Positions 785-47,531 of a stretch of DNA of 64,000 nucleotides are shown here, one piece after another. This DNA comes from a virus. The notes beneath the pieces are model-generated. The model was not told where the DNA came from. It was given only the letters and a program-made list of their open reading frames with translations, and searched no databases. How positions within the stretch are numbered: position 1 is the first letter of the stretch; each line of letters opens with the position of its first letter. The position numbers and the translations under genes were made by a program. Location of the stretch: the IMG/VR virus record IMGVR_UViG_3300035670_000075, positions 41,388 to 105,387 of that record. The stretch is one strand, 5' to 3'.

Positions 785-2564
785 TTGCTGCTCCTTCGAG
801 TTTGAAATTAGCCCACATTCCTGAGTCTATTTCCGGTTGGATTTTTTTAGTTCCGTAGCGCGATATATGCCCGTCATTGCATTTGAATGCTTCTTGAGCA
901 GTTGACGCTTTTTCGCCCAACACAACCATCCGGTAACGAAACTTGCACGTCCAGTCATTACAATTTTCAATGACACGTCCATTTTCGTCTAAACCAGGAT
1001 GCCCAAACCCTTTTCCAGTCACTTCATCCCACGACTGACTTAGCTTGGCGATTTCATCAGAAACCGATGCGGTTTCATGTGCCGATTCAACAACGCCAGC
1101 AGGCATTGCAAAATCACGTTGCGATGCACGGCTTAAAAAATCAATCACGTCAGCTTTCTGCTGGACTGGTTCAACATCTCCAAAACTAACGGCAACAGCC
1201 GTAGCGCCCTGGACTGGGTATTGAACCACTGCGTCATGACTTCCACCGTAGGCTGTTACACCAGCACTGGCAACCACTGGTGAAGATGTGGCGCTGAATC
1301 CGCCGCCGAACACGCTGCCTTGTGCGCTTGGTTGCTCTTTGGCGGGTTCTTTTCTGGTGGTTGGGCGTGGCGGTACGGGGTCGTTATCGCCATCATCATC
1401 GCCAATACTTGCCAATTTGTCTCTGGCTTTTTCAATTTGCCGAGAGAAAAATCTTTTTGCCGCGCCAGGCAGAATAGATGCTTCATTATCTGCAACCTCG
1501 TCAATAATAGTGCCGTCATCATCTCGCAAAAATCTTAACTGCCCCTTATACATGACATGCAGCGCCCATAAAATAGCGAAACTCGCCGTCATAGCCAATA
1601 GCGTAGAGACTCTTTCAGGTGACGTTCCTACCAACTCGCCAATGCGATGTATCGCAGGCATATAAACATCGCCACCTGCGCTCCCGCTTTTAATTACAGA
1701 CTGGTCGTATTCTCTCTGCGCAATAACAACCGCCTGCTCTGCCGCGTTCAACTGCTGAGCATACTGATGGTACATTGAATACTTACCAAGTTCAGCCTGT
1801 AATTGAGCTATCAGCGGTGAGGTTGTTTCTGCTGGCTTTGATTGCTTAATTCTGTTCCAGTCGTCGCATACAGCCTTCGCTGCTGATTTCATCAACCCAT
1901 AGGACGTTGTTTTAGGCGTACATGATTGGTCGGTGATTTGTCCTCTGGTAAACTCGGCGTTGTATTGAGCATTCCAAAATTCGGCAACCTGCTTATTGTA
2001 AACGATCATCTTGCTTTCATTTGCAGCGTTAAGACGCTCGCGTTCAGCATCTATTTGAGCTTGTATGCTGCTGTACTTGGATACGTTTTCAGATAACTCA
2101 GATTCGCTGAATTTCCCGCCAGCACCAACTTTACTCAGTTCATTAACTGGAACTCCCGCTATTCTTGCCATTTGATTTTTTGCGGCATCCAAGTTTGAGC
2201 TTGAAGCGGTAACACCGGCAGAGCTTACGATGCTTTTAACCCTGTAGTCATTGAATACATCGGTGAAAAATGATGTCATCGAGAACATGGTAATAACAAG
2301 CGTAAGCCCATTCACAATGCGCGCGCTATTGGCAAGTCCATGATCCCCGATTTCAAGCGCAATAATTTCAGTTGCAATTAGCATTCTTCTGATGTAAACC
2401 AGCCCAATTGCAAAGCCAATGAGGATTGCTTGCGTGAGTTCATCATCTGACATGCGCGCCCATGTGTACGCTTCAGCAGCGAATACCAAGATCAGCATCC
2501 CCCATATGGCTGTGCTGTAGTTTGCGGCTATATCAGTTCTCTGTCTGTTGGTAACTGCCATCAC
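777..2564 (-). CDS. Multi-pass membrane protein with long coiled-coil region and low-complexity C-terminus
   Basis: About 3 N-terminal hydrophobic helices, Q/E/K/A-rich heptads, a further TM near residue 330; overlaps both neighbours. Confidence 0.7.
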   Translation of the reverse strand: MMAVTNRQRTDIAANYSTAIWGMLILVFAAEAYTWARMSDDELTQAILIGFAIGLVYIRRMLIATEIIALEIGDHGLANSARIVNGLTLVITMFSMTSFFTDVFNDYRVKSIVSSAGVTASSSNLDAAKNQMARIAGVPVNELSKVGAGGKFSESELSENVSKYSSIQAQIDAERERLNAANESKMIVYNKQVAEFWNAQYNAEFTRGQITDQSCTPKTTSYGLMKSAAKAVCDDWNRIKQSKPAETTSPLIAQLQAELGKYSMYHQYAQQLNAAEQAVVIAQREYDQSVIKSGSAGGDVYMPAIHRIGELVGTSPERVSTLLAMTASFAILWALHVMYKGQLRFLRDDDGTIIDEVADNEASILPGAAKRFFSRQIEKARDKLASIGDDDGDNDPVPPRPTTRKEPAKEQPSAQGSVFGGGFSATSSPVVASAGVTAYGGSHDAVVQYPVQGATAVAVSFGDVEPVQQKADVIDFLSRASQRDFAMPAGVVESAHETASVSDEIAKLSQSWDEVTGKGFGHPGLDENGRVIENCNDWTCKFRYRMVVLGEKASTAQEAFKCNDGHISRYGTKKIQPEIDSGMWANFKLEGAANA

Positions 2565-3661
2565 ACTTCTCCTGTTTTGATTAATGGTTCTATGTCAGCG
2601 TAAACTTGTTGTGACTTAATAAATGACGCAAACTTGTTTGCTGCGTTTACGGTATTAAACTCAACGTGAATATGACCTCCTGTTGAGCCTTTTGATGATT
2701 GCTTATACTCATCAATTACATCAAAATCTTTATCTTTCATCCCGGCAGATAACAGCCATCCATTAATTTTGCTTGCATAGTTGGCGCTCTTGTCGTGCTC
2801 AGAGATTATGAAATCCAAAGCCAATCCATCCGTATGCAGGCTTTCTGGTTTTTTATTTTTGTGCCACGCATCATTGAGCGACGTAAACCTAATAAAAGAG
2901 CTATCAACATCGGCTTTCTGAATCATTCCAGCTAAAATCCAGATAGCCTCATGGCTATCTCCGCCTTCAACAGCCTGCCCGTATCGACCTCCTTTGATCA
3001 CTAGCTCGCTTTTTTGATACTGCCTAAAATCTGAGGTTATATTTGCAACGTAGGCTCTTGTTTCTTTGAATGGAGGAATCGTGTTTTGGTACTTGCGCAC
3101 GTTACCTTGTCCGGCGTTATATGCCGCCAAAGCCAAATCAACAGAGCCAAACATTTTCAGTAACTTGGCGAGATAAGATGCTCCGCAATCTAAATTTTTA
3201 TCTATGTCGAAAATGTATTCTTGCTCAAGACCGCATTCACCGCTTGCAGTAGCAGGCATCAACTGAGTTAAGCCTGAAGCACCTTTTGGTGAGCTAATGT
3301 TTTCAATCCATACCGATTCCTTCGTTATAAGCGAACGAAACAAATACTTGTCAATGCCGTGGCTATCAGCATAGCAATCTGCTTTATTGCGCTTTCCTTC
3401 CACTTCGGCGCAATTGCCAGTAATGGGCTTGTTATTTAACAAAAAATCAAACGACAACTCCTGTTTGGCAATGCTTGCAGAAGCACTTCTAATATAAAAA
3501 TCAAAGCCTGGAATACTCGGCATCTTGAGGAAATCGAAAGCCACCATGACAGCTATGATGCATAGTGCTGGCGCAATGTTGTACCGTAACGGATACCTGT
3601 CATTCCAAAAAACCTTAACCACGATTAAGGTGATAATTACTCCAAATATAGACTCGTTCAT
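2561..3661 (-). CDS. Membrane-anchored lytic transglycosylase (SLT) fused to a C-terminal M15/LAS-like peptidase domain
   Basis: ES...SPKGASGLTQLMPATA...LALAAYNAG...ETRAYV (SLT); SLH..GLALDF...GGHIHVEF (LAS Zn ligands); N-terminal TM segments. Confidence 0.85.
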   Translation of the reverse strand: MNESIFGVIITLIVVKVFWNDRYPLRYNIAPALCIIAVMVAFDFLKMPSIPGFDFYIRSASASIAKQELSFDFLLNNKPITGNCAEVEGKRNKADCYADSHGIDKYLFRSLITKESVWIENISSPKGASGLTQLMPATASGECGLEQEYIFDIDKNLDCGASYLAKLLKMFGSVDLALAAYNAGQGNVRKYQNTIPPFKETRAYVANITSDFRQYQKSELVIKGGRYGQAVEGGDSHEAIWILAGMIQKADVDSSFIRFTSLNDAWHKNKKPESLHTDGLALDFIISEHDKSANYASKINGWLLSAGMKDKDFDVIDEYKQSSKGSTGGHIHVEFNTVNAANKFASFIKSQQVYADIEPLIKTGEV

Positions 3662-3791
3662 TGTTTGATTCTTCTATGTGATTGATATATGATTTGCACA
3701 TATACTCGTATACCAAATACTATATCATAACGATATATGATGCAAGCATATATGCGTCACATATCGCCAAACGCGACACAAAGGATATACA

Positions 3792-4166
3792 ATGGCTGCG
3801 CAAGCTAAACTTACTGATGAGTTAAATCGTGATGAATGCCTCGGTGATGAGGTATTCATGGGGAGAGTTATCGCTGTGGCGGAAGGAAAACCGAAAGTAA
3901 AGCAGCTATCAGTGCCGGGTGTTCTTTTTGATGAATGCCAAGAATCGTCGAGAGCGCTTGGACTGCCGTTTAATGAGTGGATCGTTCAAGCCATGCGTGA
4001 CAAGCTTGCGCGTGAGCGCGGCGTATCTTTATTGACGGAACCCGATATAAAACTGATAGAGGAAACGGCGCGCAGAATGGCTGAGCAAGTCGGTGATGTA
4101 GTTGCGGAAAGAACCGCTGGTCAGTACGGAATGCTGATCGAGCTATGCAGGAATGGAAAAGACTAA
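3792..4166 (+). CDS. Small ribbon-helix-helix-like regulator
   Basis: VKQLSVPGVLFDECQESSRALGLPFNEWIVQAMRDKL fits a beta-helix-helix pattern; divergent from the SLT operon. Confidence 0.5.
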   Translation: MAAQAKLTDELNRDECLGDEVFMGRVIAVAEGKPKVKQLSVPGVLFDECQESSRALGLPFNEWIVQAMRDKLARERGVSLLTEPDIKLIEETARRMAEQVGDVVAERTAGQYGMLIELCRNGKD

Positions 4167-5902: not shown

Positions 5903-6049
5903 AGCAAAAATCCTCTGATAGTGAAATTGATTGTCAATCAATGAGTTGACACGCCTTTCACTATAGGGGAAGATGCGTGTATTTAATGTATTTTTTGTGT
6001 TAAATGTAGCGCTAAGCGTTGTTGCATGTCATAAAATCGGGTAAACTAA

Positions 6050-6340
6050 GTGTCAACAGAGAAAAACCACCAGTCCAACCCTGATGCGAAACTCAGGATG
6101 GAAAACTTGGGAGAGCCAATTAAAGAGTTTCGTATCCGTCCAGTGGCGGTCTATCTTTCTGACCGGCTTGGTATTTCGTACAAAGCCGCTTATATCAGGG
6201 TTTTGAGAGTGGTGCGTGAAAAGATGGTCGAGCACGATTATTTTGGCGCGCACGACAGGCTTATTCGCGCCGAATACAAAAAAATCGGCGGCACGATTTT
6301 GATCAGCCGCGAGGCTGTGGTGAAGTATTTTTTATCTTGA
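6050..6340 (+). CDS. Hypothetical protein, possibly DNA-binding
   Basis: First gene of a tightly packed plus-strand cluster. Confidence 0.45.
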   Translation: MSTEKNHQSNPDAKLRMENLGEPIKEFRIRPVAVYLSDRLGISYKAAYIRVLRVVREKMVEHDYFGAHDRLIRAEYKKIGGTILISREAVVKYFLS

Positions 6341-6344
6341 GGGC

Positions 6345-6665
6345 ATGAGAATGGAAAGAGGCACATTGATTCGTGAGTTGCAGAGAGTCATGCGTGATGA
6401 GAATGGCGACGAGGGTACGCCGACACAGGCGTTAATTGGCGATGTGTTTGATTCGCTGTGTACGTTTATGCATTCGCAATTGGCGGCTGGTGAAGACATT
6501 CGTTTCCCCGGCGTATGTCGCGTATTCGCCAAAGAGACGGTAAAGACATCACGCCAAAACCCGCGAACCAAAAAAAAGTTGCCAGGTCGCCGCAAGATGA
6601 TGCTGAAAGTTAAAGCTATCGGCGAACTTGCTGCCGAGTTTAATGAATCGGCGGTTGAGTTGTGA
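6345..6665 (+). CDS. HU/IHF-like DNA-binding protein
   Basis: LAAGEDIRFPGVCRVF...RQNPRT...KVKAIGEL matches the HU arm motif. Confidence 0.8.
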   Translation: MRMERGTLIRELQRVMRDENGDEGTPTQALIGDVFDSLCTFMHSQLAAGEDIRFPGVCRVFAKETVKTSRQNPRTKKKLPGRRKMMLKVKAIGELAAEFNESAVEL

Positions 6666-7835: not shown

Positions 7836-8507
7836 TCACCCCTTAACCAACTCCGCCCACCAGTTATACGAACAAATCCGCGTCCGATAACCGTCCTTGC
7901 GTTCATTGGTAGTTTCCACGCGGCGGCGCACGCCGTTACTAACGGTGAAATGCAATGAACCACATGTCCAGTCCTTGAAAATCGCATCGCAGCGGTCTTT
8001 GAAATCGAAACTGACAAACGCACTTTCAGGGACATGCAAGCGAATATCCAGCAAGCCTTCCAGCTTCCAACTCGGCGGCGAATAGCACAGATGCGATTCG
8101 CGCTCGCCGACCATCTCCAATTCCACATATGGCTTATCTTGCGGTAACTCGCCAACAATCCACTTGCCGCCTTCGTCCGTGGTGATGAAGTAAGCAGGCG
8201 TGTACCACATGAACAACTGCTCGTCACCATCGCCTGACGCGGATGTAACTGACTCTGCCACGGTGATGCTGAAGGGTGAAACTGACGTGTTGACAGCCGC
8301 GATGGTGAATAGCTTGCCGTTGTTCGCGCCAAGTCCGTCGCGCGACTCTAGCCAATGACCAGGCTCGAAGCCGTCGAACGCGCCGATGTCGCTTGACTGG
8401 AACTTGTTTGGCGCGACAGCATCGATGGTGCCGGATTGCAGCAGACCCCATCCGTCGATAAAACGCTGCTCTATATCGCCGACAATATCTGCGTGCTTAG
8501 TGTACAT
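7836..8507 (-). CDS. Tail completion/terminator-like protein with inserted decoration domain
   Basis: Position in tail region; PYVELE...G.LDIRLHVP pattern; likely start MYTKHAD. Confidence 0.5.
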   Translation of the reverse strand: MYTKHADIVGDIEQRFIDGWGLLQSGTIDAVAPNKFQSSDIGAFDGFEPGHWLESRDGLGANNGKLFTIAAVNTSVSPFSITVAESVTSASGDGDEQLFMWYTPAYFITTDEGGKWIVGELPQDKPYVELEMVGERESHLCYSPPSWKLEGLLDIRLHVPESAFVSFDFKDRCDAIFKDWTCGSLHFTVSNGVRRRVETTNERKDGYRTRICSYNWWAELVKG

Positions 8508-21849: not shown

Positions 21850-21920
21850 AATATTTCTACTGGAGTCTAGGTTGCAATGGATACCATTCTTGTGTTGTGC
21901 ATCTTTATTTGTGGAACGGT

Positions 21921-21944
21921 GTCGGCTGTACCGCTAAGTTAGGG
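21921..21944 (-). mobile_element. Truncated attC (R'' and L'' half only)
   Basis: Minus strand CCCTAAC-TTAGC-GGTACAGC-CGAC; no matching second half. Confidence 0.6.
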
Positions 21945-21950
21945 GTTATT

Positions 21951-22133
21951 ATGAATGAGAAAGAGTTGCTTGAGATAATCAACGCATACAAAAACGATAT
22001 TTTATCCAACGATGGAGATAAAGCAGATCGTTTTTTAATGATGCTTGCAAAAGAAGTTGAACGTCAAACACGCCATAAAGCAGTGAAAATTGCTTACGAT
22101 ATGGCAGAGAAAATTAGCGATCTGAACTCCTAA
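21951..22133 (+). CDS. Cassette-borne hypothetical protein
   Basis: Starts just after GTTAGGG; stop TAA lies in the TCCTAAC box. Confidence 0.7.
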   Translation: MNEKELLEIINAYKNDILSNDGDKADRFLMMLAKEVERQTRHKAVKIAYDMAEKISDLNS

Positions 22134-22226
22134 CGCCGAGCTAAGCCTACCGGTGCTGCCGGTCAACTTGAACCAAAACCGAAAAATCTCGGCGGCACCG
22201 GGTCGGCCTTGAGCGATAAGTTATGG
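22128..22226 (-). mobile_element. attC site
   Basis: Minus: CCATAAC-5-GCTCAAGG-CCGA...stem...GCTTAGC-TCGGC-GTTAGGA. Confidence 0.85.
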
Positions 22227-22420
22227 CAGATATTACAATGTGCATCAATCAAGCATGTGATATGCGTGAAGACTGCTATAGAGCAAAAGCGACACCTGCT
22301 GTTTTCCAAAGTTTGTGTTTTTTTGCTCCGATAAACGGTAATTGCGAGAATTATATTGAGTATAAGCAGCACACTAAAAAAGCAAAAAATACTGGTATTT
22401 GTAGCCATAACGCTTTATAG
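22223..22420 (+). CDS. Cassette-borne small Cys-rich phage protein
   Basis: MADITMC....C.....CYR; cassette ends GTTATGGC / GCCATAAC are complementary. Confidence 0.7.
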   Translation: MADITMCINQACDMREDCYRAKATPAVFQSLCFFAPINGNCENYIEYKQHTKKAKNTGICSHNAL

Positions 22421-39477: not shown

Positions 39478-39936
39478 ATTTGGATGACATGACCATAAGA
39501 TGAATCAGTAACAGAAATTCTTGAATATCGCTCACCGTGGAAAACAAAGCGAGCGGTAAAAAAAAAAGGCAAGTGGCTAAGCCGTCATGAGAAGCGCCCG
39601 CCGAGCGCTTGAAATTGCCACATCGGTACGAAGCATCACTGGCTCCAATAGGCAAAGGCGTCTTGAAATGCCGGTGTGTTGCGGTTCGATTCCGTGACTG
39701 TGCTTTTTTTATAGCTATAAGAAGTCAGCAAAATGCATCTCTATTACTGTGGACGTAAAAAATGGCGCGGTTATATGAATCGCGTAACTGAAGCTAGTAT
39801 GCTTGATGCTTTACCATTCGGGAAATTAATTGCGCGGGTAAAAAAGCATCAGGTTTATTTTGTATGTCGTGATGTTTCAAGAAGTCAGCAGGCAATTAAA
39901 TTGAAAAGATTTTGGCGGGCTTCGCGCAGTGAATAA

Positions 39937-40034
39937 AGATAACGCCCGAACTCAGGCGACCATTGCCGCCTATGAGCTTTAATTAACCAATTTAAACCGG
40001 CGGCAATGGGTCGGCCTTGACCGCCAAGTTAGGC
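39937..40034 (-). mobile_element. attC site
   Basis: Minus: GCCTAAC-5-GGTCAAGG-CCGA-CCCATTGCCGCC...GGCGGCAATGG...CCTGAGT-6-GTTATCT. Confidence 0.85.
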
Positions 40035-40053
40035 TTTTGCCTTTAGGATACAT

Positions 40054-40299
40054 ATGAACACAGACGATATAATGAATGAATCTGAGAAGCTTACAGAGGA
40101 ACTTGTAAAATATCTAGCAAAACGTAAAACAAACCGCGCAGTTGCGATCACGTCATTAGTAGATTGCTGCGTTTTTATCGCTACCGAGTCGAAAGATGAA
40201 AAAGTCATTTTCACAATACTTGATATGATTCATAAAAGAGTAGACTCAATTGCCAATGAGCTTTTTGCAGAGCGTAGCATATGGAAAGTTAAAGCCTAA
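40054..40299 (+). CDS. Cassette-borne hypothetical protein
   Basis: Cassette ends GTTAGGCTTT / AAAGCCTAAC are 10-bp complementary; stop lies in TAAC. Confidence 0.75.
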   Translation: MNTDDIMNESEKLTEELVKYLAKRKTNRAVAITSLVDCCVFIATESKDEKVIFTILDMIHKRVDSIANELFAERSIWKVKA

Positions 40300-40349
40300 C
40301 TTGTAGATAGGCAGAATGTTGAATAACTGTTATTTAACATTCTGCCTAT
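40294..40349 (-). mobile_element. attI-like site with 21-bp-arm palindrome
   Basis: Minus: ...CATTCTGCCTATCTACAAG|TTAGGC; palindrome 40307-40349; near-identical copy at 45816-45868. Confidence 0.65.
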
Positions 40350-40354
40350 TACCA

Positions 40355-40915
40355 TCACTGCAACGTCACATCATCAGCACCAAGTCTATCTTGGATGCCT
40401 ATTAACAAAGCCAATTCATCCTGGCTCAACTGCTTCACAAGCTCGCGTTCGTCTTTGACTTTCAACTCACCACTAACTTCAGACCTGCTATCTACGCTAA
40501 GCCTGTCGAAGCGCCCAAACTCATCGCGGTAACGTCGCTCCAACAGCCATGCAATCGGTTGCCACGGTGGAGGCGCGGCTTTCTGAATGACCTCGCGGCT
40601 GAGTAGGTTGCCGTCTGCGTCGTAGCGGCGCTTTTCTTCTATAATCACTTGCTTCTGCGTTGAAGCGTCTAGCATCTTTCTAAGCAGGCTTTTCTTGTAC
40701 TCAAGCTTTGCTTTTTTTATAGTCTCTGAAAACTCCGAAAACACAGGAGACTTTCTTTCATCTCCGCTTTTCATCCAATCATAAAAAGCAGCTTCACTAA
40801 CGCCAGCAGCAGTGCAAGCATCTGCATTTGAAAGCCCTGCCTTAAAAGCCTCCACCAGTATCGCTATAATGTCAGGCGTGAATACCCTCTTCCGCCCGGT
40901 CTTACTCTTCGCCAC
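40355..40915 (-). CDS. Terminase small subunit-like protein
   Basis: GRK..FTP, HTH (AC.AAGVS..AFYDW), WQ..AWLLERRY..EFG. Confidence 0.75.
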   Translation of the reverse strand: MAKSKTGRKRVFTPDIIAILVEAFKAGLSNADACTAAGVSEAAFYDWMKSGDERKSPVFSEFSETIKKAKLEYKKSLLRKMLDASTQKQVIIEEKRRYDADGNLLSREVIQKAAPPPWQPIAWLLERRYRDEFGRFDRLSVDSRSEVSGELKVKDERELVKQLSQDELALLIGIQDRLGADDVTLQ

Positions 40916-41579
40916 TTTGTCTCACCACCTTCTTTCTCTTCTGCACATCGGGGTAGCGCAGAATAATTCCATCTAATTCAGTTTCAAATGCCAGCAAGTC
41001 ATCCATTGGTACACTGACTGTTATCTTAGCAACTTGCTCCATATTGTCGCCGCCACCATCGCCACCGAAGTCATTGCCATCACCGCCGAAGCCATCACCA
41101 AATCCGCTGTTTTGCAAACTCGCAAACAACGCGCCAGTGTCAACTTCAAGTGCCTTCAGTGCATCGGAAAAGCCAGCCTCCAACGCACTCAAGTCCCACT
41201 CGCCACTCACACCTGGTAGTGGGTTGTCGAGCAGTAAGATTTGCTCCTCTTGCGCCGGGGTCAGCCCGCTGCACACAACGGCTGGAGCGTGAGTAACACC
41301 CATGTACAGCACAGCATCGACACGCAAATGCCCGGCGCACGACATCAACTTGCCAGTCCTATCTGACAATATCGGCAATCGATTCATAAACAACTCAGGA
41401 GACTGTTTAATCCCCTCTGCGAGATTATGAATCTCTACCTTGCCGTACTTGCGCGGATTGGCGCTGCCATTGACAGATGTATAGGGGACTATCTCTCTGT
41501 AATCAACCGTCAGCAACTCGCACTTGGCGGAAGCGGTTATTACGTCCAAAAGCTGTTTTTCTGTTTTTTGCTGCGACAT
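40902..41579 (-). CDS. ParB/Srx-like protein
   Basis: NPRK, AGHLRV.A, DN....GEWD...L; sits upstream of terS. Confidence 0.7.
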   Translation of the reverse strand: MSQQKTEKQLLDVITASAKCELLTVDYREIVPYTSVNGSANPRKYGKVEIHNLAEGIKQSPELFMNRLPILSDRTGKLMSCAGHLRVDAVLYMGVTHAPAVVCSGLTPAQEEQILLLDNPLPGVSGEWDLSALEAGFSDALKALEVDTGALFASLQNSGFGDGFGGDGNDFGGDGGGDNMEQVAKITVSVPMDDLLAFETELDGIILRYPDVQKRKKVVRQSGEE

Positions 41580-41667
41580 CTTGCGTTAACGCCGTTGTTT
41601 GTTTACAATATGTTTACATAATCTAATATAGATAGATTATACACAGAATTCACACAGGATAACAAAG

Positions 41668-43173
41668 ATGGGCGGCAGCATAATCACCAAAACCATGTTC
41701 ATGTCAGGCGTGCAATGCACGCTAAAACTATGGCACGAACAGCATGCCGACAGCAGAGAACCGCCGTCAGAAAGCACGCTGCGCGCAATGGCAGAAGGCA
41801 ATGAAGTCGGCGCACTGGCGCGTGCGCAATATCCTGGCGGCGTATTTATCGCCGAAACAAACTACGAAGCCGCTGCCGCTGCGACGCGCGAGGCATACGA
41901 AAACGGCGCGTCGGTAATCTACGAAGCGGCATTTTTGGTAGATGATATGTACGCCAAAGTCGATATTTTGCATATCGACGAGGAAGGCAACGCAACCATC
42001 ATTGAAGTAAAAGCCACTACGTCGGTAAAACCTGAGCATCTTCCAGACGTAGGCTTCCAATGGCACGTTGTCGTAGCGTCTGGTATCAACGTGACTAACG
42101 TATACCTGATGATTCTCGACGACACCAAGCTGTGTCCGTCTGATAACTACTTCAAACTGGAAGATGTCGCAGAGAAAGCGCAAATCTGGAAAGACGCTGC
42201 ACAGTCAAAATCGGTTGCGCTGATGAAAACAGCCAATCAAGCAACACAGCCAACACAACAAATAGGATCACACTGCAACACGCCGTATGACTGCCAATTC
42301 ACCGATAAATGTTGGGCGCATGTACCTGATGAGAATAGCATATTTACAATCCCATTCCTGCGTGGGAGAAAAAAACAAGACCTGATCGACGCAGGAATAT
42401 TCCATATCAACCACTTGCCAACTGAATTTGAGGCAACTGCGGCGCAACAGGTGTGGATTGATGTGGCAACCAGTGGCAAGCCAATCGTCAACATTGCCGG
42501 AATCAAAGACGAGCTATCGCAACTGGAATACCCGCTGGCTCACTTCGATTTTGAGACAATGGCATACGCCATCCCAAGATTTGCCGGGATGAAGCCGTAT
42601 CAGCAGTTCCCATTCCAATTTTCACTGCATGTGCAGAGAAAAAATGGGAAAATAACCCATCAAGAATATTTACATGTCACTCGCGACGACCCGCGAAAAC
42701 ACATTGCAGAAGCCATGCTTGCTTCTATTCCAGACGGCGGACATATCATCACCTGGAACAAACATTTCGAGTCTGGACGCATCATGGAAATGGCAGCGTG
42801 GCTGGAGTCAACCGGAGAAATCTCAAAAGCCAACCAGATGCGCAAGTTCAACGACCGCCTGTGGGACTTGGCTGAGATATTCCGCATCAAAGGCACTGGC
42901 GAAGTGCTGTGGCTGCACCCCGACATGCAGGGGCGCTACAGTATCAAATATGTTCTTCCAGTGATTGCGCCGCACTTGAGCTACAAGGGCATGAAAGTCG
43001 CCAAGGGCGATGAAGCAATGAACGCCTGGGCAAAGCTGATCATGCTTCCAGACGGCAGCGCCGAGAAGCAGGAATTGACATCGGCATTGCTTGCATACTG
43101 CAAGCAGGACACATACGCGATGGTGGTTATTTTGGATTATCTGTGGAGTCTTGTATGGAAAAGCGGTTTGTAG
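41668..43173 (+). CDS. DUF2779 protein (RecB/Cas4-like nuclease + RNase H-like domain)
   Basis: K..F..G.QC...LW, VDIL...IEVKA, C..PY.C.F...CW, DFET, FQFSLH, SIKYVLP, YC..DT. Confidence 0.88.
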   Translation: MGGSIITKTMFMSGVQCTLKLWHEQHADSREPPSESTLRAMAEGNEVGALARAQYPGGVFIAETNYEAAAAATREAYENGASVIYEAAFLVDDMYAKVDILHIDEEGNATIIEVKATTSVKPEHLPDVGFQWHVVVASGINVTNVYLMILDDTKLCPSDNYFKLEDVAEKAQIWKDAAQSKSVALMKTANQATQPTQQIGSHCNTPYDCQFTDKCWAHVPDENSIFTIPFLRGRKKQDLIDAGIFHINHLPTEFEATAAQQVWIDVATSGKPIVNIAGIKDELSQLEYPLAHFDFETMAYAIPRFAGMKPYQQFPFQFSLHVQRKNGKITHQEYLHVTRDDPRKHIAEAMLASIPDGGHIITWNKHFESGRIMEMAAWLESTGEISKANQMRKFNDRLWDLAEIFRIKGTGEVLWLHPDMQGRYSIKYVLPVIAPHLSYKGMKVAKGDEAMNAWAKLIMLPDGSAEKQELTSALLAYCKQDTYAMVVILDYLWSLVWKSGL

Positions 43174-43397
43174 TAACTAAAGGCAACGGGACATTCAAAG
43201 CTGGCGATAGAATAGTCTTTTACAAAAATGGGGACATAGGTTGCGCACAGGCTGGTGGATGGGTTGATAATAAGGACGCAGAAGAAGCTACAAAAGGTAT
43301 GGAATACAGACCTGATGTTGAGTTTGCGAAAAAGAAGATTAAACGCCTATCGGAAGAGATTGCAGAGTTGCGCAGAGAATATGGTGTTACTGAATAA
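43143..43397 (+). CDS. Phage hypothetical protein
   Basis: Overlaps the end of the DUF2779 gene. Confidence 0.55.
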   Translation: MESCMEKRFVVTKGNGTFKAGDRIVFYKNGDIGCAQAGGWVDNKDAEEATKGMEYRPDVEFAKKKIKRLSEEIAELRREYGVTE

Positions 43398-43611
43398 TGT
43401 TATTTTCCTTTGGAGTGAAAAACATGCTTACGACTGTTAGGGCTAGAGTTTGCAGAGTTGGTGAATGGGCAGTGTTCCGCACAAAACAGCATGGATTGGT
43501 CATGCAAATGGGCGACGGTTATATGAAAGCGCCTCTGCAAAAAAAGAATATGTTTAAGTTAAATATCAGCGGTAATACGCCATGCCTGGTAAGGTCGCGA
43601 TGCGATATTAA

Positions 43612-43708
43612 AACTAACGCCAAAGCTCAGGCGACAACCGCCGTCTGTGAACCATAAACAACCAAAAAGCCTAACGGCAGCGGGTCGCGCTCAAGTGTGA
43701 AGTTAGGC
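43612..43708 (-). mobile_element. attC site (more degenerate, array-distal)
   Basis: Plus: AACTAAC-GCCAAA-GCTCAGG-CGAC...GTCG...GTGAA-GTTAGGC. Confidence 0.7.
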
Positions 43709-43722
43709 TGTGGAGATAAGCC

Positions 43723-44010
43723 ATGACTGAGATTGTAAAAGGAATGAAAATTACGCCTTGGGGTACTAAAGATAACCCTCTTATGCAGGGAATGTTTGTT
43801 GGTTGCGTACAATGGGCGATTGGTGATAAAGATATAGTTGAATCGTTCAAGAAAGATACAGGTAATGACCTGAACTCGTTAAGATTTTCAGGTATTGATG
43901 GAATGATTGATGAAGCTACAGGAAGGGCTGGAGAGATGTTTGCAGCCTTTGCGGATTATGTGGCTGAAAATATCTGGGGTGATGAAAACTCGGATATTGA
44001 TGCAGCCTAA
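43723..44010 (+). CDS. Cassette-borne hypothetical protein
   Basis: GTTAGGCTG / CAGCCTAAC ends; RBS GGAG; stop in TAAC. Confidence 0.75.
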   Translation: MTEIVKGMKITPWGTKDNPLMQGMFVGCVQWAIGDKDIVESFKKDTGNDLNSLRFSGIDGMIDEATGRAGEMFAAFADYVAENIWGDENSDIDAA

Positions 44011-44103
44011 CGCCAGAATTAACCCGACATGCGCCGCCAATTAACTAAAACCAAGTCATAAAAGCCCGACGGCGCATGGTCGGACTTGATGGCAAAGTTA
44101 TAC
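44005..44103 (-). mobile_element. attC site
   Basis: Plus: GCCTAAC...CCGACATGCGCCG...CGGCGCATGGTCGG...GCAAA-GTTATAC. Confidence 0.85.
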
Positions 44104-44112
44104 GGAGACTAT

Positions 44113-44418
44113 ATGAGCAAGCAACAATGGGGACATGGATACCACCGTGGTTTTAATAAAGGATACGCAAAGGCGAAGCGCGAAGAGGAAACAAAGCGCG
44201 CTTTCAAAGAAAATAAACATGCTCATTGGGTTGAGATTACTCATTACGGAAGCGAAGGCGTTGAGCCAAAAGACCGCATGTTATGCGGTGATGTTGGTGG
44301 TAGCTGTATAAGCGGAAGCGGTGAAAGCATATGTGCTGGCTATCGCGGTGAAAATGAAACAGGTACACATGTGATATGCGCTGAAAAACCAAGAGCGTAT
44401 AAGCATGATTCCGTATAA
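44113..44418 (+). CDS. Cassette-borne hypothetical protein
   Basis: GTTATACGGA / TCCGTATAAC ends; stop in TAAC. Confidence 0.75.
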   Translation: MSKQQWGHGYHRGFNKGYAKAKREEETKRAFKENKHAHWVEITHYGSEGVEPKDRMLCGDVGGSCISGSGESICAGYRGENETGTHVICAEKPRAYKHDSV

Positions 44419-44511
44419 CGCCAGAACTCAGGCGACCATTGCCGCCTGCAAACTTAAACTTTAGCCAGTTCACTCCGGCGGCAATGGGTCGCCTGGAGTG
44501 ACAAGTTATAT
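44413..44511 (-). mobile_element. attC site
   Basis: Arms nearly identical to the 39937-40034 site. Confidence 0.88.
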
Positions 44512-44524
44512 TGAGGTAACAAAT

Positions 44525-44794
44525 ATGATTAAAAATCTCAGAAATGATTTTATTGAACTGATGTCAGAGTCATATGTAAAAATGCCAAGGCACGACAGAA
44601 TATGTCTGCTCCATGCAATGGACGCACCTGACAATAACCCAGCGACAGGGCTGCCATTTCAAACAGTAGGCGAACTGTTTGGTTCAATGAGTGACGAATC
44701 TTTGGCAACAGTCTATCGCGATATGCGTGATAACGAATTATTAGCAAGTCGGGACAGCTACAGAAAATATGAAGAAGCCATTAAAAATTTGTGA
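44525..44794 (+). CDS. Cassette-borne hypothetical protein
   Basis: GTTATATT / AATATAAC ends; RBS GAGG. Confidence 0.75.
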   Translation: MIKNLRNDFIELMSESYVKMPRHDRICLLHAMDAPDNNPATGLPFQTVGELFGSMSDESLATVYRDMRDNELLASRDSYRKYEEAIKNL

Positions 44795-44898
44795 ATATAA
44801 CGCCAAAGCTCACGCGACCAATACCGCCCGCGATGAGCTTTAATCCGGCACTAAATTTTGTGGGCGGTATTGGGTCGCCGTGGAGCGTAAAGTTAGGT
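44795..44898 (-). mobile_element. attC site
   Basis: Plus: ATATAAC...CGACCAATACCGCCC...GGGCGGTATTGGGTCG...GTAAA-GTTAGGT. Confidence 0.88.
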
Positions 44899-44903
44899 GC
44901 TTA

Positions 44904-45059
44904 ATGAATAAGAATATGAGAGCGGTAGCAAGGAAATCATGCTGGATGGCTAATGGTTTTTTCGGTTCAAACCGCAAAGAAGCCGTTCAAAAAGCAATAG
45001 AAAACGGAGTTAAACCCGAAAACATAAAAGCTAAAAAAGTATATCCATCTGGCAAATGA
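44904..45059 (+). CDS. Cassette-borne 51-aa basic protein (below ORF-track cutoff)
   Basis: MNKNMRAVARKSCWMANGFFG...YPSGK*; GTTAGGTG / CACCTAAC ends. Confidence 0.6.
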   Translation: MNKNMRAVARKSCWMANGFFGSNRKEAVQKAIENGVKPENIKAKKVYPSGK

Positions 45060-45066
45060 ATTTTAC

Positions 45067-45164
45067 ACCTAACGCCTGAGCTAAGCCGCGCTGCGCCGCG
45101 ATGAACTTTATATTAACCTGCTCAAGCCCGACGGCGCAGCGTCGGCTTGAGCGCAAAGTTAGAG
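45067..45164 (-). mobile_element. attC site (textbook layout)
   Basis: Minus: CTCTAAC-TTTGC-GCTCAAGC-CGACGCTGCGCCG...CGGCGCAGCGCG-GCTTAGC-TCAGGC-GTTAGGT. Confidence 0.92.
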
Positions 45165-45241
45165 GTTGACATGGATAGAATCAAGGTAACAAAAGATTGC
45201 ATTAAAGTATATGAGCAGCAAAAAGGTTCAAAAGAATCTTC

Positions 45242-45811
45242 TTACTTATCAAGAAGAAGACTTCTAATTTCTTTGAAATCGTCATCATCAAGAAAGAAAA
45301 ACTGACATGATTTTGATTTCTTTTTATTTGACATAATCGTTAATCCTTTATATATGCTTAACGATTGTGTCTTTTTGGCATCTGCACTTGATAATATGCT
45401 AACTTTATTAAATCCGTTTTTTTCAAAAAAATGTTCTTTACCAATTGAAGATATGAAACATATAGGAGAGAATCTTTCTTTCACTGTGCTAAGCACAAGA
45501 CTACCAATACCTTCCATTCTGTATTTTTCTTCAACATATATGCGATGTAGATAGAATTTATCTCCAGGAAAATGAATAACCATAGCATAAGATATTGGGT
45601 TTCCTTCATAAAGGTAAGCTATGATTTTCAAATTACCAACACGAAATAACTCTTTAAATATATTTGATATATAATTTAAAGCATTATCATAATTTATGTT
45701 TTTATCAATTGATAGCCCAATAATCATTGGAGTTATAAGAGCATCCTGAAGCATTATCTCCGATTCTATTTTTATTATCTGGTTTATATCTGATTGACTA
45801 AGCTCACTCAT
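45242..45811 (-). CDS. GNAT-family acetyltransferase (AT-rich cassette)
   Basis: YLHRIYVEEKYRMEGIGSLVL, FFEKNGF; begins GTTAGAGGTAAATATG. Confidence 0.85.
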   Translation of the reverse strand: MSELSQSDINQIIKIESEIMLQDALITPMIIGLSIDKNINYDNALNYISNIFKELFRVGNLKIIAYLYEGNPISYAMVIHFPGDKFYLHRIYVEEKYRMEGIGSLVLSTVKERFSPICFISSIGKEHFFEKNGFNKVSILSSADAKKTQSLSIYKGLTIMSNKKKSKSCQFFFLDDDDFKEIRSLLLDK

Positions 45812-45815
45812 ATTT

Positions 45816-45868
45816 ACCTCTAACTTGTAACTAGGCAGAATGTTAAATAACTGTTATTCAACATTCTG
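45816..45868 (-). mobile_element. attI-like site with 16-bp-arm palindrome
   Basis: Minus: ...CATTCTGCCTAGTTACAAG|TTAGAGGT; palindrome 45836-45868. Confidence 0.65.
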
Positions 45869-45880
45869 TATAATACAACC

Positions 45881-46207
45881 ATGTCACAATCATTCCTATC
45901 AGCCAACGCCAGGGCGCAGCGCAGGCACAAAGCCAAACGCGCTGCGCTAGGCTTCTCTCAGCTTAATTTCTGGATTCACGAAAAAGACCGTGACATTCTG
46001 GCTTCGGCACTGAAAAAATACAACGCTGACAAGCTTGAAACGCTGGAGCGGCGCATGAGCTTAATCATTCGTGTCGCCAACGACGAAACTGAAATAACAC
46101 TGCACGAAGCATCAGAAATACAACAAAAGATGTTTCCAGAAAATAAACCGCTACCAATAAAAAAAACATGGTGGCAGAAAACCAAAGCATGGCTTGGCGT
46201 TAACTAA
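45881..46207 (+). CDS. Small RHH-like protein with amphipathic C-terminus
   Basis: RAQRRHKAKRAALGFSQLNFWIH; KKTWWQKTKAWLG. Confidence 0.6.
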   Translation: MSQSFLSANARAQRRHKAKRAALGFSQLNFWIHEKDRDILASALKKYNADKLETLERRMSLIIRVANDETEITLHEASEIQQKMFPENKPLPIKKTWWQKTKAWLGVN

Positions 46208-46258
46208 CAATTTTAACGCGCAAGTCATTGATTAAGATAGTATATTACTAGACATAGC

Positions 46259-46286
46259 ACGCAAAATAATTTACATTATTTTATAT
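46259..46286 (+). other. dif-like 11-6-11 recombination site
   Basis: ACGCAAAATAA-TTTACA-TTATTTTATAT; right arm has 2 mismatches to the XerD arm TTATGTTAAAT; IHF consensus at 46221-46233 (minus). Confidence 0.55.
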
Positions 46287-46310
46287 GTATTATTTTTATA
46301 GTTGACACAG

Positions 46311-47387
46311 ATGGAAACTGAAGATTTAGAAGAAAATCATGAATCGGATACGCGCGAAAGACTTCTCAAGAAATACGCCGCAAAATCCATACGGAAAAAG
46401 ACGCGGCAAGACTACGAATCAAGACTTAGGCTTTATCAAGCGTCAGGTAGAAAACTTCCAGCAACTGACGTTGAAATCGTAGAATACATCGAATCGGCAA
46501 AAGTCATGTCGCGTAAGAAAAACGGCGAATACATTACCAAAGACAGCTTGCTTGCTGTGTCATCAGTCCAATCAATAGTTGCTGCTTTGTCGTGGTGGCA
46601 TCAAGAAAATAACCACCAAGACCACACAAATAGCGCGCTGGTTAAAAAAGCCATTGCAGCAATCAAGCGCGAACGCGCAAAACCGCAAGCGCAAGCGCGA
46701 GCAATAAAAACTGAAGAAATTGCAGCAATCACTGAAACGCTACTCGAACTACAAACAACCCAAAATGCCGCAGACAATCTCCGCGCAATCCGCGATCTGG
46801 CTTTTATCCTCGCGCTGTTTTACACCGGGTGCAGAGAAAGCGAAATCCGTCACCTCAGAGTTGATGATCTGGAGTTTACAGATGACGGTCTAATCGTAAA
46901 AATCAGAAAGTCAAAAACAGACGACGGAACTGGAAGAAACACGCCAATCCCATACCGCGATGCTAACGGACAAAAAATACTCGCGGCATACGCGATCTCT
47001 GATTGGATTGAAAAGGCTGGAATAAAGTCTGGCTTCGTATTCAGAACAGTAGACCAATACGCTGTCGTCGGTCGTGGGAAAAAGCCGCTAGACTATGGGT
47101 TTTCTTCACGGACACTACTCAAATACGCAGAGATGTCAGGCGTATCAATAGACGGAATCAGCACACACTCATTCAGAGCCGGGTGCGCAACAGCACTAAA
47201 TTTAAGCGGCGCAGGTATTGCCGAGATAGCGCAGCACTTAGGTCATCGCTCAACGGCGTCAACGATGAAATACTTACGCGCCGACGCATCAACCAGACTT
47301 AAAGACGCACCAACACGGAAAATTGCGCAGCCAAAGAAAACTTTTACGCAGATAGTTTTCACGTTTATTGCACGTTTATTTTCGTGA
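46311..47387 (+). CDS. Cre/TnpS-like tyrosine recombinase
   Basis: RD.A......TGCRESE, KSKTD, HSFRAG.AT, GH.S...MKY; no IntI-specific insertion. Confidence 0.9.
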   Translation: METEDLEENHESDTRERLLKKYAAKSIRKKTRQDYESRLRLYQASGRKLPATDVEIVEYIESAKVMSRKKNGEYITKDSLLAVSSVQSIVAALSWWHQENNHQDHTNSALVKKAIAAIKRERAKPQAQARAIKTEEIAAITETLLELQTTQNAADNLRAIRDLAFILALFYTGCRESEIRHLRVDDLEFTDDGLIVKIRKSKTDDGTGRNTPIPYRDANGQKILAAYAISDWIEKAGIKSGFVFRTVDQYAVVGRGKKPLDYGFSSRTLLKYAEMSGVSIDGISTHSFRAGCATALNLSGAGIAEIAQHLGHRSTASTMKYLRADASTRLKDAPTRKIAQPKKTFTQIVFTFIARLFS

Positions 47388-47434
47388 TGTTGTTTTGCAA
47401 TTAAAAAACAATAACTTATGAAATAAAGCCAAGT

Positions 47435-47458
47435 GTTCGATTCCCGCCGCCTCCACCA
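47435..47458 (+). other. attP core = 3' end of tmRNA (ssrA)
   Basis: GTTCGATTCCCGCCGCCTCCACCA (T-loop plus tmRNA-type 3' acceptor strand, CTCCACCA) just downstream of the integrase; remainder of the RNA gene absent. Confidence 0.85.
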
Positions 47459-47531
47459 ATAACCCTGCGCTATCCGGCGTTATGACGGCAATTTAACACC
47501 TCATAACGCCGCATATCCCCTCGTAAACATT

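Follow-up and report, generated by a model that had tools for sequence, protein, structure and literature searches.

The locus described here raises the question of how one very AT-rich gene, read from the opposite strand to its four neighbors, came to stand at the head of a phage-borne array of gene cassettes. A first-pass annotation answered it with a recent capture from a host integron, in support of active exchange. The window covers the right-hand 64 kb of a linear IMG/VR virus record of 105,387 bp, which comes from a subsurface metagenome and is estimated to be 95% complete. We observe the anatomy, polarity, position and foreign composition of the cassette, as well as its absence from one relative, and we favor a capture by integron-type recombination as its origin.

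Array Layout and Polarity of the attC Sites

43612-43706, 44005-44103, 44413-44511 and 44795-44898 (region 43609..44903), minus strand: the four other attCs of array A, 89-105 bits with covariance model R1, one shared polarity
Between the array A attCs and between attC4 and attC5, plus strand: four mirror-image cassette genes, from the ORF list; the last is orf59, which ends at 45059
45067..45166, minus strand (recombinogenic bottom strand = plus): attC5, the attC of the GNAT cassette; R1 95 bits, fold -45 kcal/mol
39937-40034, minus strand: attC of array B, a single cassette headed by the platform copy at 40297-40349; palindrome and R1 evidence

Array A comprises five attCs inside 43612-45166 and the phage genome encodes no IntI anywhere, an arrangement that corresponds to a CALIN (at least two attCs close together, no IntI nearby). 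The four neighbors of the GNAT cassette contain long, tightly fitted ORFs on the plus strand, and one of these four genes has a PHROG match. A PADLOC defense-system search gave no match for any cassette protein of the array, the GNAT included. The covariance model, R1, was built from six imperfect palindromes of the window and detects seven attC sites across the genome, all on the plus strand and scoring 73-105 bits. The seventh site (22125-22231, 73 bits) lies 3′ of a plus-strand ORF (region 21915-22231), which begins after what appears to be the lone 3′ arm of another attC (...GGTGTCGGCTGTACCGCTAAGTTAGGGG, ~21915-21942).

On the minus strand, the boxes of attC5 are ACCTCTAAC for R'' (45166-45158) and GTTAGGT for R' (45073-45067), in agreement with the RYYYAAC (R'') and GTTRRRY (R') boxes that define an attC when placed in an imperfect palindrome. 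Folding leaves T45142 and G45149 extrahelical, as single-base bulges in the 3′ arm of the plus strand. BLAST of attC5 against plasmids leads to the attCs of class 1 integron cassettes, and two class 1 integrons (pHCG11 and pSL264), oriented like the plus strand of the window, serve as the polarity reference. In both, the resistance cassettes are on the minus strand; in pSL264, the one reference locus that reaches intI1, this gene lies to the right, on the plus strand. On class 1 integrons R1 detects the true attCs only on the plus strand (23-40 bits), with 8 bits or less on the minus strand. Because of the class 1 orientation, the strand detected by R1 and the bulged T and G, the plus strand of the window is the attC bottom strand; canonical cassette genes therefore belong on the minus strand, so that the array has its head on the right-hand side. 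The GNAT gene, on the minus strand, is co-oriented with the attC polarity and shows the strand asymmetry of a canonical cassette gene. As the first-pass annotation had noted, it is the only such gene in array A, the four other ORFs being on the plus strand.

Is the GNAT cassette a stranger among the others by its recombination site? attC5 is 66-75% identical to the six other phage attCs and shares their length of ~98 nt and their AT-rich loop; among the seven it is also the nearest to class 1 attCs, its arms being 81-82% identical to those of qacL and aac(6'). Within a given source taxon, attC types are reportedly conserved (Ghaly et al., 2021, PMC8352920). As an ordinary member of the phage attC family, attC5 argues that the GNAT cassette derives from the same pool as its neighbors, not from an exotic AT-rich donor. 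Among 151 sampled Pseudomonadota, R1 finds attC-like sites in 11, often several clustered per genome. None belongs to the ~100-nt family of the phage: the sites measure 65-78 nt with a best score of 52 bits, and no donor lineage emerged from this sample. The model works as a general attC detector, and all sites in the sampled genomes are shorter and lower-scoring than the phage family.

The GNAT Cassette and Its Ends

45073..45823, minus strand: GNAT gene cassette, 751 bp; crossover points AA|C on plus (= G|TT on minus), from the attC polarity test and the junction sequences
45242..45811, minus strand: GNAT N-acetyltransferase gene, 189 aa, phrog_10454 member; Pfam, PHROG, HMMER and AF2
45812..45824, minus strand: cassette 5′ end and leader G|TTAGAGGT-AAAT ahead of the GNAT ATG, read from the sequence
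45171..45305, plus strand: 44-codon ORF, a doubtful gene antisense to the GNAT 3′ end; translation only, starts 4 nt past the plus-strand GTTAGAGGT
45824..45868, minus strand: attI-like platform, consisting of the core ...GCCTAGTTACAAG| and a 16-1-16 palindrome (45836-45868); palindrome search and attI1 core likeness

The GNAT unit had been placed first after an attI-like site, and it is indeed the first unit to the left of the junction at 45824 (minus strand). There the minus strand reads ...GCCTAGTTACAAG|TTAGAGGTAAATATG (...TTACAAG|TTAGAGG), and the attI1 core of pSL264 reads ...GCCCTAAAACAAAG|TTAGAAAA; the likeness of the platform to attI1 is short (GCC(C)TA..ACAA(A)G|TTAG). The GNAT stop is at 45242 and its own attC comes 75 nt further on. 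With regard to the promoterless ORF typical of cassettes, the unit contains a single ORF, and no sigma-70 consensus promoter, which may not be the type used by the host, is present upstream of the GNAT on the minus strand.

The sequence GTTAGAGGT occurs at 45158-45166 on the plus strand and, inverted, at 45816-45824 on the minus strand; these are its sole two copies in the genome on either strand. The ends of the GNAT cassette (GTTAGAGGT / ACCTCTAAC) are thus complementary at 9/9 nt and unique within 105 kb. All other cassettes of the arrays also have complementary ends, of 8-13 nt. The presence of GTTAGAGGT at both ends is therefore explained as the R'/R'' pair of the cassette and is not a matter of chance. 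It had also been noted that an ATG follows GTTAGAGGT at both ends, and it does so 4 nt on, at 45171 (plus) and at 45811 (minus, the GNAT start). The ATG at 45171 is given no meaning in itself: an ATG followed by a short ORF, with nothing independent to support it, is not above chance. Its 44-codon ORF shows neither family nor homology evidence; it could have arisen by chance or be what is left of the 5′ part of an older cassette gene of mirror-image orientation. The leader at 45812..45824, in turn, as read from the sequence, serves both as the remainder of the R' box and as a Shine-Dalgarno sequence. In sum, the predicted layout, with an apparently promoterless ORF followed by its own attC, 9-nt complementary ends and an attI-proximal position, supports a genuine, canonically organized cassette.

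The GNAT Protein and Its Family

The GNAT ORF is intact, scores above the Pfam gathering thresholds for PF13508, PF00583 and PF13673 and matches phrog_10454 over its full length (E 1.6e-22). Its AlphaFold (AF2) model (pLDDT 92.5) has a GNAT fold, many GNAT structures match it in Foldseek with probability 1.00 and TM ~0.5, and every aligned family member has the acetyl-CoA motif R98-x-x-G101-x-G103. Judged by this modeled fold and by motif A (R/Q-x-x-G-x-G/A), the ORF at 45242-45811 is assigned to the GNAT superfamily (PF00583 clan). Fold searches with the model give generic GNAT matches only, with no specific structural neighbor that points to a substrate. A named resistance acetyltransferase, for aminoglycosides or other substrates, is rejected since all NCBIfam models score far below their cut-offs (best 21.5 bits vs. 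194); likewise, identity as AAC(6') is not adopted, 1b87 being one among many GNAT structure matches (TM 0.49).

The GNAT ORF has a GC content of 0.282 (GC3 0.21), against a genome mean of 0.49 (sd 0.045 in 570-nt windows). It is the lowest-GC 570-nt window in the entire 105,387-bp record, with 0.1% of windows equally low, which bears out the earlier remark that the gene is much more AT-rich than the phage (28% vs. 49% GC). The other cassette genes have a GC content of 0.37-0.44. The low-GC block starts at 45160, directly past the attC stem, and continues through the cassette end and the platform to ~45879. The GNAT cassette is thereby the compositionally most foreign DNA of the phage. GC is 0.31-0.40 in all but two homologues, in contexts of 0.35-0.53; because the homologues are AT-rich whatever their context, a low GC content characterizes the family as such and cannot serve to date the capture. 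Its use to argue for recency is rejected.

The family is rare: HMMER finds 38 relatives among 1.84 billion representative proteins, the best being 43% identical and the remainder ~30%. Among Atlas clusters, an enterobacterial GNAT of 201 aa comes nearest (TM 0.89). A word-based homologue search returned the GNAT protein itself alone, tblastn of the GNAT and megablast of the region against the phage collection gave no match, and a literature search found no paper that names the accessions of the family. Eighteen homologue loci were examined, and they show the family at non-cassette positions, for the most part in prophages, plasmids and P1-like phage-plasmids. In the P1-like phage-plasmids the gene (e.g., WP_000072647, a phrog_10454 GNAT) lies between mat and darB, in a variable region near cre. 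In the locus examined from the E. coli P1-like plasmid NZ_CP122833 (L017), for instance, it is found at 5956-6564 between a maturation control gene and the gene for a DarB-type methylase, with cre and c1 at a distance of a few kb. We take this slot to be the one where P1 itself carries res and mod on the P1 map. On IMG/VR prophage contigs the homologue stands alone as an AT-rich gene, with a hairpin (terminator) after it; on an Aeromonas conjugative plasmid its neighbors are small uncharacterized genes, and further homologues are found on marine and other metagenome contigs.

None of the 18 loci has a detectable attC flanking the homologue itself, even with the model filters off. One locus (L020, region 1690-3940, on a contig of a Winogradskyella MAG) is the only one next to an attC array: a small canonical array, with at least three attCs (31, 25 and 18 bits) and plus-strand cassettes, lies ~1.5 kb downstream of the homologue on the same strand. 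In this locus a ~250-bp repeat that begins with a hairpin stands behind the homologue and again behind the next small ORF. The closest homologue (L019, alphaproteobacterial MAG CALNYU010000011, 43% amino acid identity) has an identical GTTAGAGGT-N4-ATG leader (7960-7979). It has a GC content of 0.32 within a mosaic island whose flanks reach 0.63, is followed by a Fic/DOC gene and has no attC, and no IntI scores above the cut-off in the L019 or the L020 genome. The proposal of a capture from a host integron, as judged by homologues in bacterial cassette arrays, is therefore only partly borne out: one homologue lies beside an attC array, but none is flanked by an attC and no donor appeared. The GNAT is best explained as an acetyl-CoA-dependent N-acetyltransferase of the stand-alone type, from a rare family of AT-rich genes carried by mobile elements. 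The gene neighborhoods allow a guess at a role in phage-host or phage-phage conflict.

An alternative regards the GNAT as a resident moron, that is, an ordinary accessory gene of mobile elements (phrog_10454) held for long in the phage lineage, with cassette-like borders that merely reflect the neighboring attC and platform. Its reverse orientation would then permit expression apart from the plus-strand operon, e.g., during lysogeny. The family does occur at non-cassette positions in P1-like phage-plasmids, IMG/VR prophages and the Aeromonas conjugative plasmid, its members are AT-rich in GC-richer contexts, and the GNAT adjoins a recombination module, the usual place of a moron. However, the gene is followed by an attC of its own, with the expected spacing and polarity, its 9-nt R'/R'' complement is unique in the genome, the sole phage relative lacks the GNAT, and identity to the phage-plasmid members is just ~32%. 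We consider a resident moron unlikely and retain the captured cassette as the preferred reading.

The Region in Related Phages and Metagenome Contigs

Contigs of four metagenome runs, which drop rare variants, were compared over 39500-47500. In the probable source sample, the contigs span 42903-45946 with zero differences, and in a second sample of the same study the GNAT-platform junction (45387-45902) is identical. A run from another study (X3) contains a ~90% identical phage, with sequence common to both over 41683-43391 and 45812-47290. It retains the flanks of the array (42886-43391 and 45812-46675) but not the array content: between 43391 and 45812 it has different DNA, with nothing but attC-like fragments in common, and the GNAT and the neighboring cassettes are all absent. 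Small matches of X3 and X4 within 45400-45450 were rejected as a sign of GNAT presence, being low-complexity matches of ~35 nt. The stretch 43392-45811 has thus turned over in its entirety, and not the GNAT unit alone. The X3 relative diverges at 43391/43392, at the very end of an 84-aa ORF (43143-43397) and ~220 nt before the last attC; the 86-aa ORF at 43397-43657, which overlaps the last attC, is therefore also in the variable segment.

Relatives that lack exactly the GNAT unit were not found: X3 differs over the whole of 43392-45811 and no contig skips 45073-45823. Neither the joint 45072|45824 of an empty site nor a circular junction is present in the contigs of the four runs, in which rare forms are invisible. 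Searches of IMG/VR by the recombinase, a DUF2779 protein, the palindrome and the attC-family pattern gave no relatives, so that the sole relative comes from metagenome contigs.

On the right, homology to X3 sets in at 45812. This point is immediately next to the GNAT start codon and falls 12 nt within the predicted cassette. It could reflect another cassette that shares the R' leader, a piece that stayed behind when the GNAT was lost, or a GNAT that replaced the interior of an older mirror-image cassette. The last possibility has been developed into a full alternative, in which a plus-strand cassette gene ran from the ATG at 45171, behind the R box GAGG, to the TAA in CTCTAAC (45821-45823), and its interior was exchanged for the GNAT by a process that is not site-specific. 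The plus-strand GTTAGAGGT-N4-ATG exactly matches the starts of the other mirror-image cassettes, the sequence common to X3 extends up to 45812, the base that adjoins the GNAT start codon, and the unrelated DNA upstream of it in X3 is a plus-strand frame ending ...ATT TAC CTC TAA. However, in an unrelated bacterium the closest homologue starts behind the very same GTTAGAGGT-N4-ATG leader, which would thus travel with the gene. The identical leader of this distant L019 homologue favors a leader that belongs to the GNAT gene itself. Furthermore, the AT-rich block fills all space up to the attC stem, and the 12 nt common to X3 are known as a matched interval, not base by base. A replaced interior therefore appears decidedly unlikely, and capture of a complete cassette is again preferred.

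The attI-Like Platform and the Adjoining Recombinase

40297..40349, minus strand: second platform copy, which heads array B; palindrome at 40312-40344
45881..46207, plus strand: 108-aa ORF between platform and recombinase, conserved in the X3 relative
46302..47387, plus strand: Cre-like tyrosine recombinase, 361 aa (PF00589), at the position and in the orientation expected of intI

The platform occurs twice in the phage, and a third context (50 bp, window 45820-45869) is found on metagenome contigs of X1 and X2. There, a different cassette end (...ACAGCCTAA|C, with a CTAA|C junction) abuts the core on the left of the platform, and the DNA immediately beyond the palindrome is unrelated (CTAGCATGGTGAGCC...); the 105-kb phage contains neither of these flanks. 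Three different cassette ends, two in the phage and one in the X2 contig, therefore meet one core at the canonical AA|C point. This is the best evidence that the attI-like core may act as a cassette insertion site.

The two phage palindromes (45836-45868 and 40312-40344) have a single arm difference, A or G at position 10, swapped from one copy to the other; the central T is direct in both, as is the left flank CTAACTTGTA. A swapped mismatch of this type would be expected if two perfect lox-like (13-7-13) sites had undergone a reciprocal crossover within the spacer. If such a crossover took place, 40328-45852 would be an integrated module. The 108-aa ORF (45881..46207) that follows the platform has no match in Pfam, NCBIfam, PHROG or PADLOC. 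The nearest solved structures to the 361-aa recombinase are Cre/Tre (E ~1e-6). It was considered as an IntI and rejected: it scores 28 bits with TIGR02249 (cut-off 265) and IntI-specific features are absent. Throughout the phage (95% complete) no integron integrase was found, the best TIGR02249 scores being 20-28 bits against the cut-off of 265, and the locus is thus not a complete integron.

Insertion of cassettes by this recombinase in the absence of IntI, at the lox-like palindrome, the attI-like core or both, would accord with the enzyme's occupation of the intI place in the same divergent orientation, with a platform repeated in the phage and in another context, and with a swapped arm mismatch that looks like a past reciprocal crossover, but is very unlikely given the absence of IntI-specific features from the enzyme and junctions that coincide with the canonical IntI crossover point, which lies outside the palindrome at a distance of 12 nt. 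We know of no tyrosine recombinase other than IntI that processes folded, single-stranded attCs. Equally improbable, in our estimate, is the broader speculation that attI-like core, lox-like palindrome and Cre-like recombinase together form a phage-encoded, IntI-free capture platform, which would take canonical cassettes from bacterial integrons and replace or remodel them into phage-oriented ones.

Origin of the Cassette

The GNAT unit is most probably a genuine, canonically oriented cassette, integrated at the attI-like core by IntI-type recombination with IntI provided by the host in trans. Recombination of the G|TT type, as catalyzed by IntI, would have taken place between the attC of the GNAT cassette and the attI-like core, the catalyst being the integron integrase of the bacterial host. 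The cassette would have been drawn from the same pool as the other phage cassettes. The GNAT would still keep the gene orientation selected in bacterial integrons, while its older neighbors are aligned with phage transcription. The reasons for proposing IntI-type capture are the attC polarity set by the class 1 integrons, the likeness of the core to attI1, the canonical junctions at the core, the complementary ends, the low-GC block that starts where the attC stem ends, the X3 relative with its retained flanks and different array content, the leader common to the nearest homologue and the array beside the Winogradskyella homologue. Phage-borne attCs have been recombined by IntI1 in published assays (PMC9892861). 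Counted against it are the lack of IntI in the phage, the 0/18 homologues flanked by attCs, the association of the family with mobile elements, the start of X3 homology 12 nt inside the cassette, the lack of a contig with an empty site or a circular junction (contigs only) and the lack of a sigma-70 promoter.

We infer the event, its agent and its date, as well as the function of the GNAT. With regard to the date, IntI is established to insert preferentially at attI (summarized in PMC9892861), and the attI-proximal position and the absence from one relative are the two observations that suggest a recent arrival. The original proposal of a recent capture and of active exchange goes further than the evidence collected here: AT-richness is family-wide, no donor integron and no IntI were found, and attC5 is of the same family as the other six attCs. 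The GNAT cassette fits gene traffic with bacterial integrons, for which no donor and no sign of ongoing movement were found. Assays have led to the proposal that phages and bacterial integrons exchange cassettes; to our knowledge, natural examples that show the direction of this traffic are scarce. In this respect the locus provides an internal contrast, with one canonical cassette of foreign composition at the insertion-proximal slot beside phage-oriented ones. Furthermore, a rare acetyltransferase family of mobile elements is now seen in a third type of vehicle, besides phage-plasmids and conjugative plasmids, and is marked as a candidate for conflict genes.

Comparison with Known Systems

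Formally, array A is a CALIN with an attI-like head, a type of object already known in phages (Qi et al., 2023, PMC9892861). The published phage CALINs, such as that of the Shewanella prophage M16-3, in which attI heads both an integron and a CALIN, are likewise attC clusters without their own IntI at the array, and exchange of cassettes with bacterial integrons has been proposed for them (PMC9892861). As in those phages, an attI-type site heads two separate arrays and the attCs are structurally genuine (Qi et al., 2023, PMC9892861). In contrast to them, the phage described here has no IntI anywhere, carries a 33-bp palindrome on the platform and an adjoining Cre-like recombinase, contains one canonical cassette only and is known from sequence alone.

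The GNAT cassette also resembles class 1 integron cassettes with aadA/qac-type attCs, with which it shares an ORF followed by an attC, R''/R' boxes, an extrahelical T and G on the bottom strand and G|TTAG at an attI1-like core. The attCs of aadA7 and qacI/qacF have been called Xanthomonadales-type (Ghaly et al., 2021, PMC8352920). Unlike class 1 cassettes, it has an attC of ~98 nt with an AT-rich loop, and its GNAT cargo is not a known resistance gene.

The phrog_10454 GNAT of the P1-like phage-plasmids is of the same family, with a full-length match, and is similarly an AT-rich accessory gene of a temperate phage of ~90-105 kb, near a Cre-type recombinase region. However, identity is ~32%, and the genes of the P1-like elements have no attC and end in a hairpin terminator. 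The GNAT cassette is a solid addition to an already known kind of element and does not define a new one. More unusual at this locus are the cassettes with mirror-image genes, the palindrome-bearing platform that occurs more than once, and the recombinase related to Cre.
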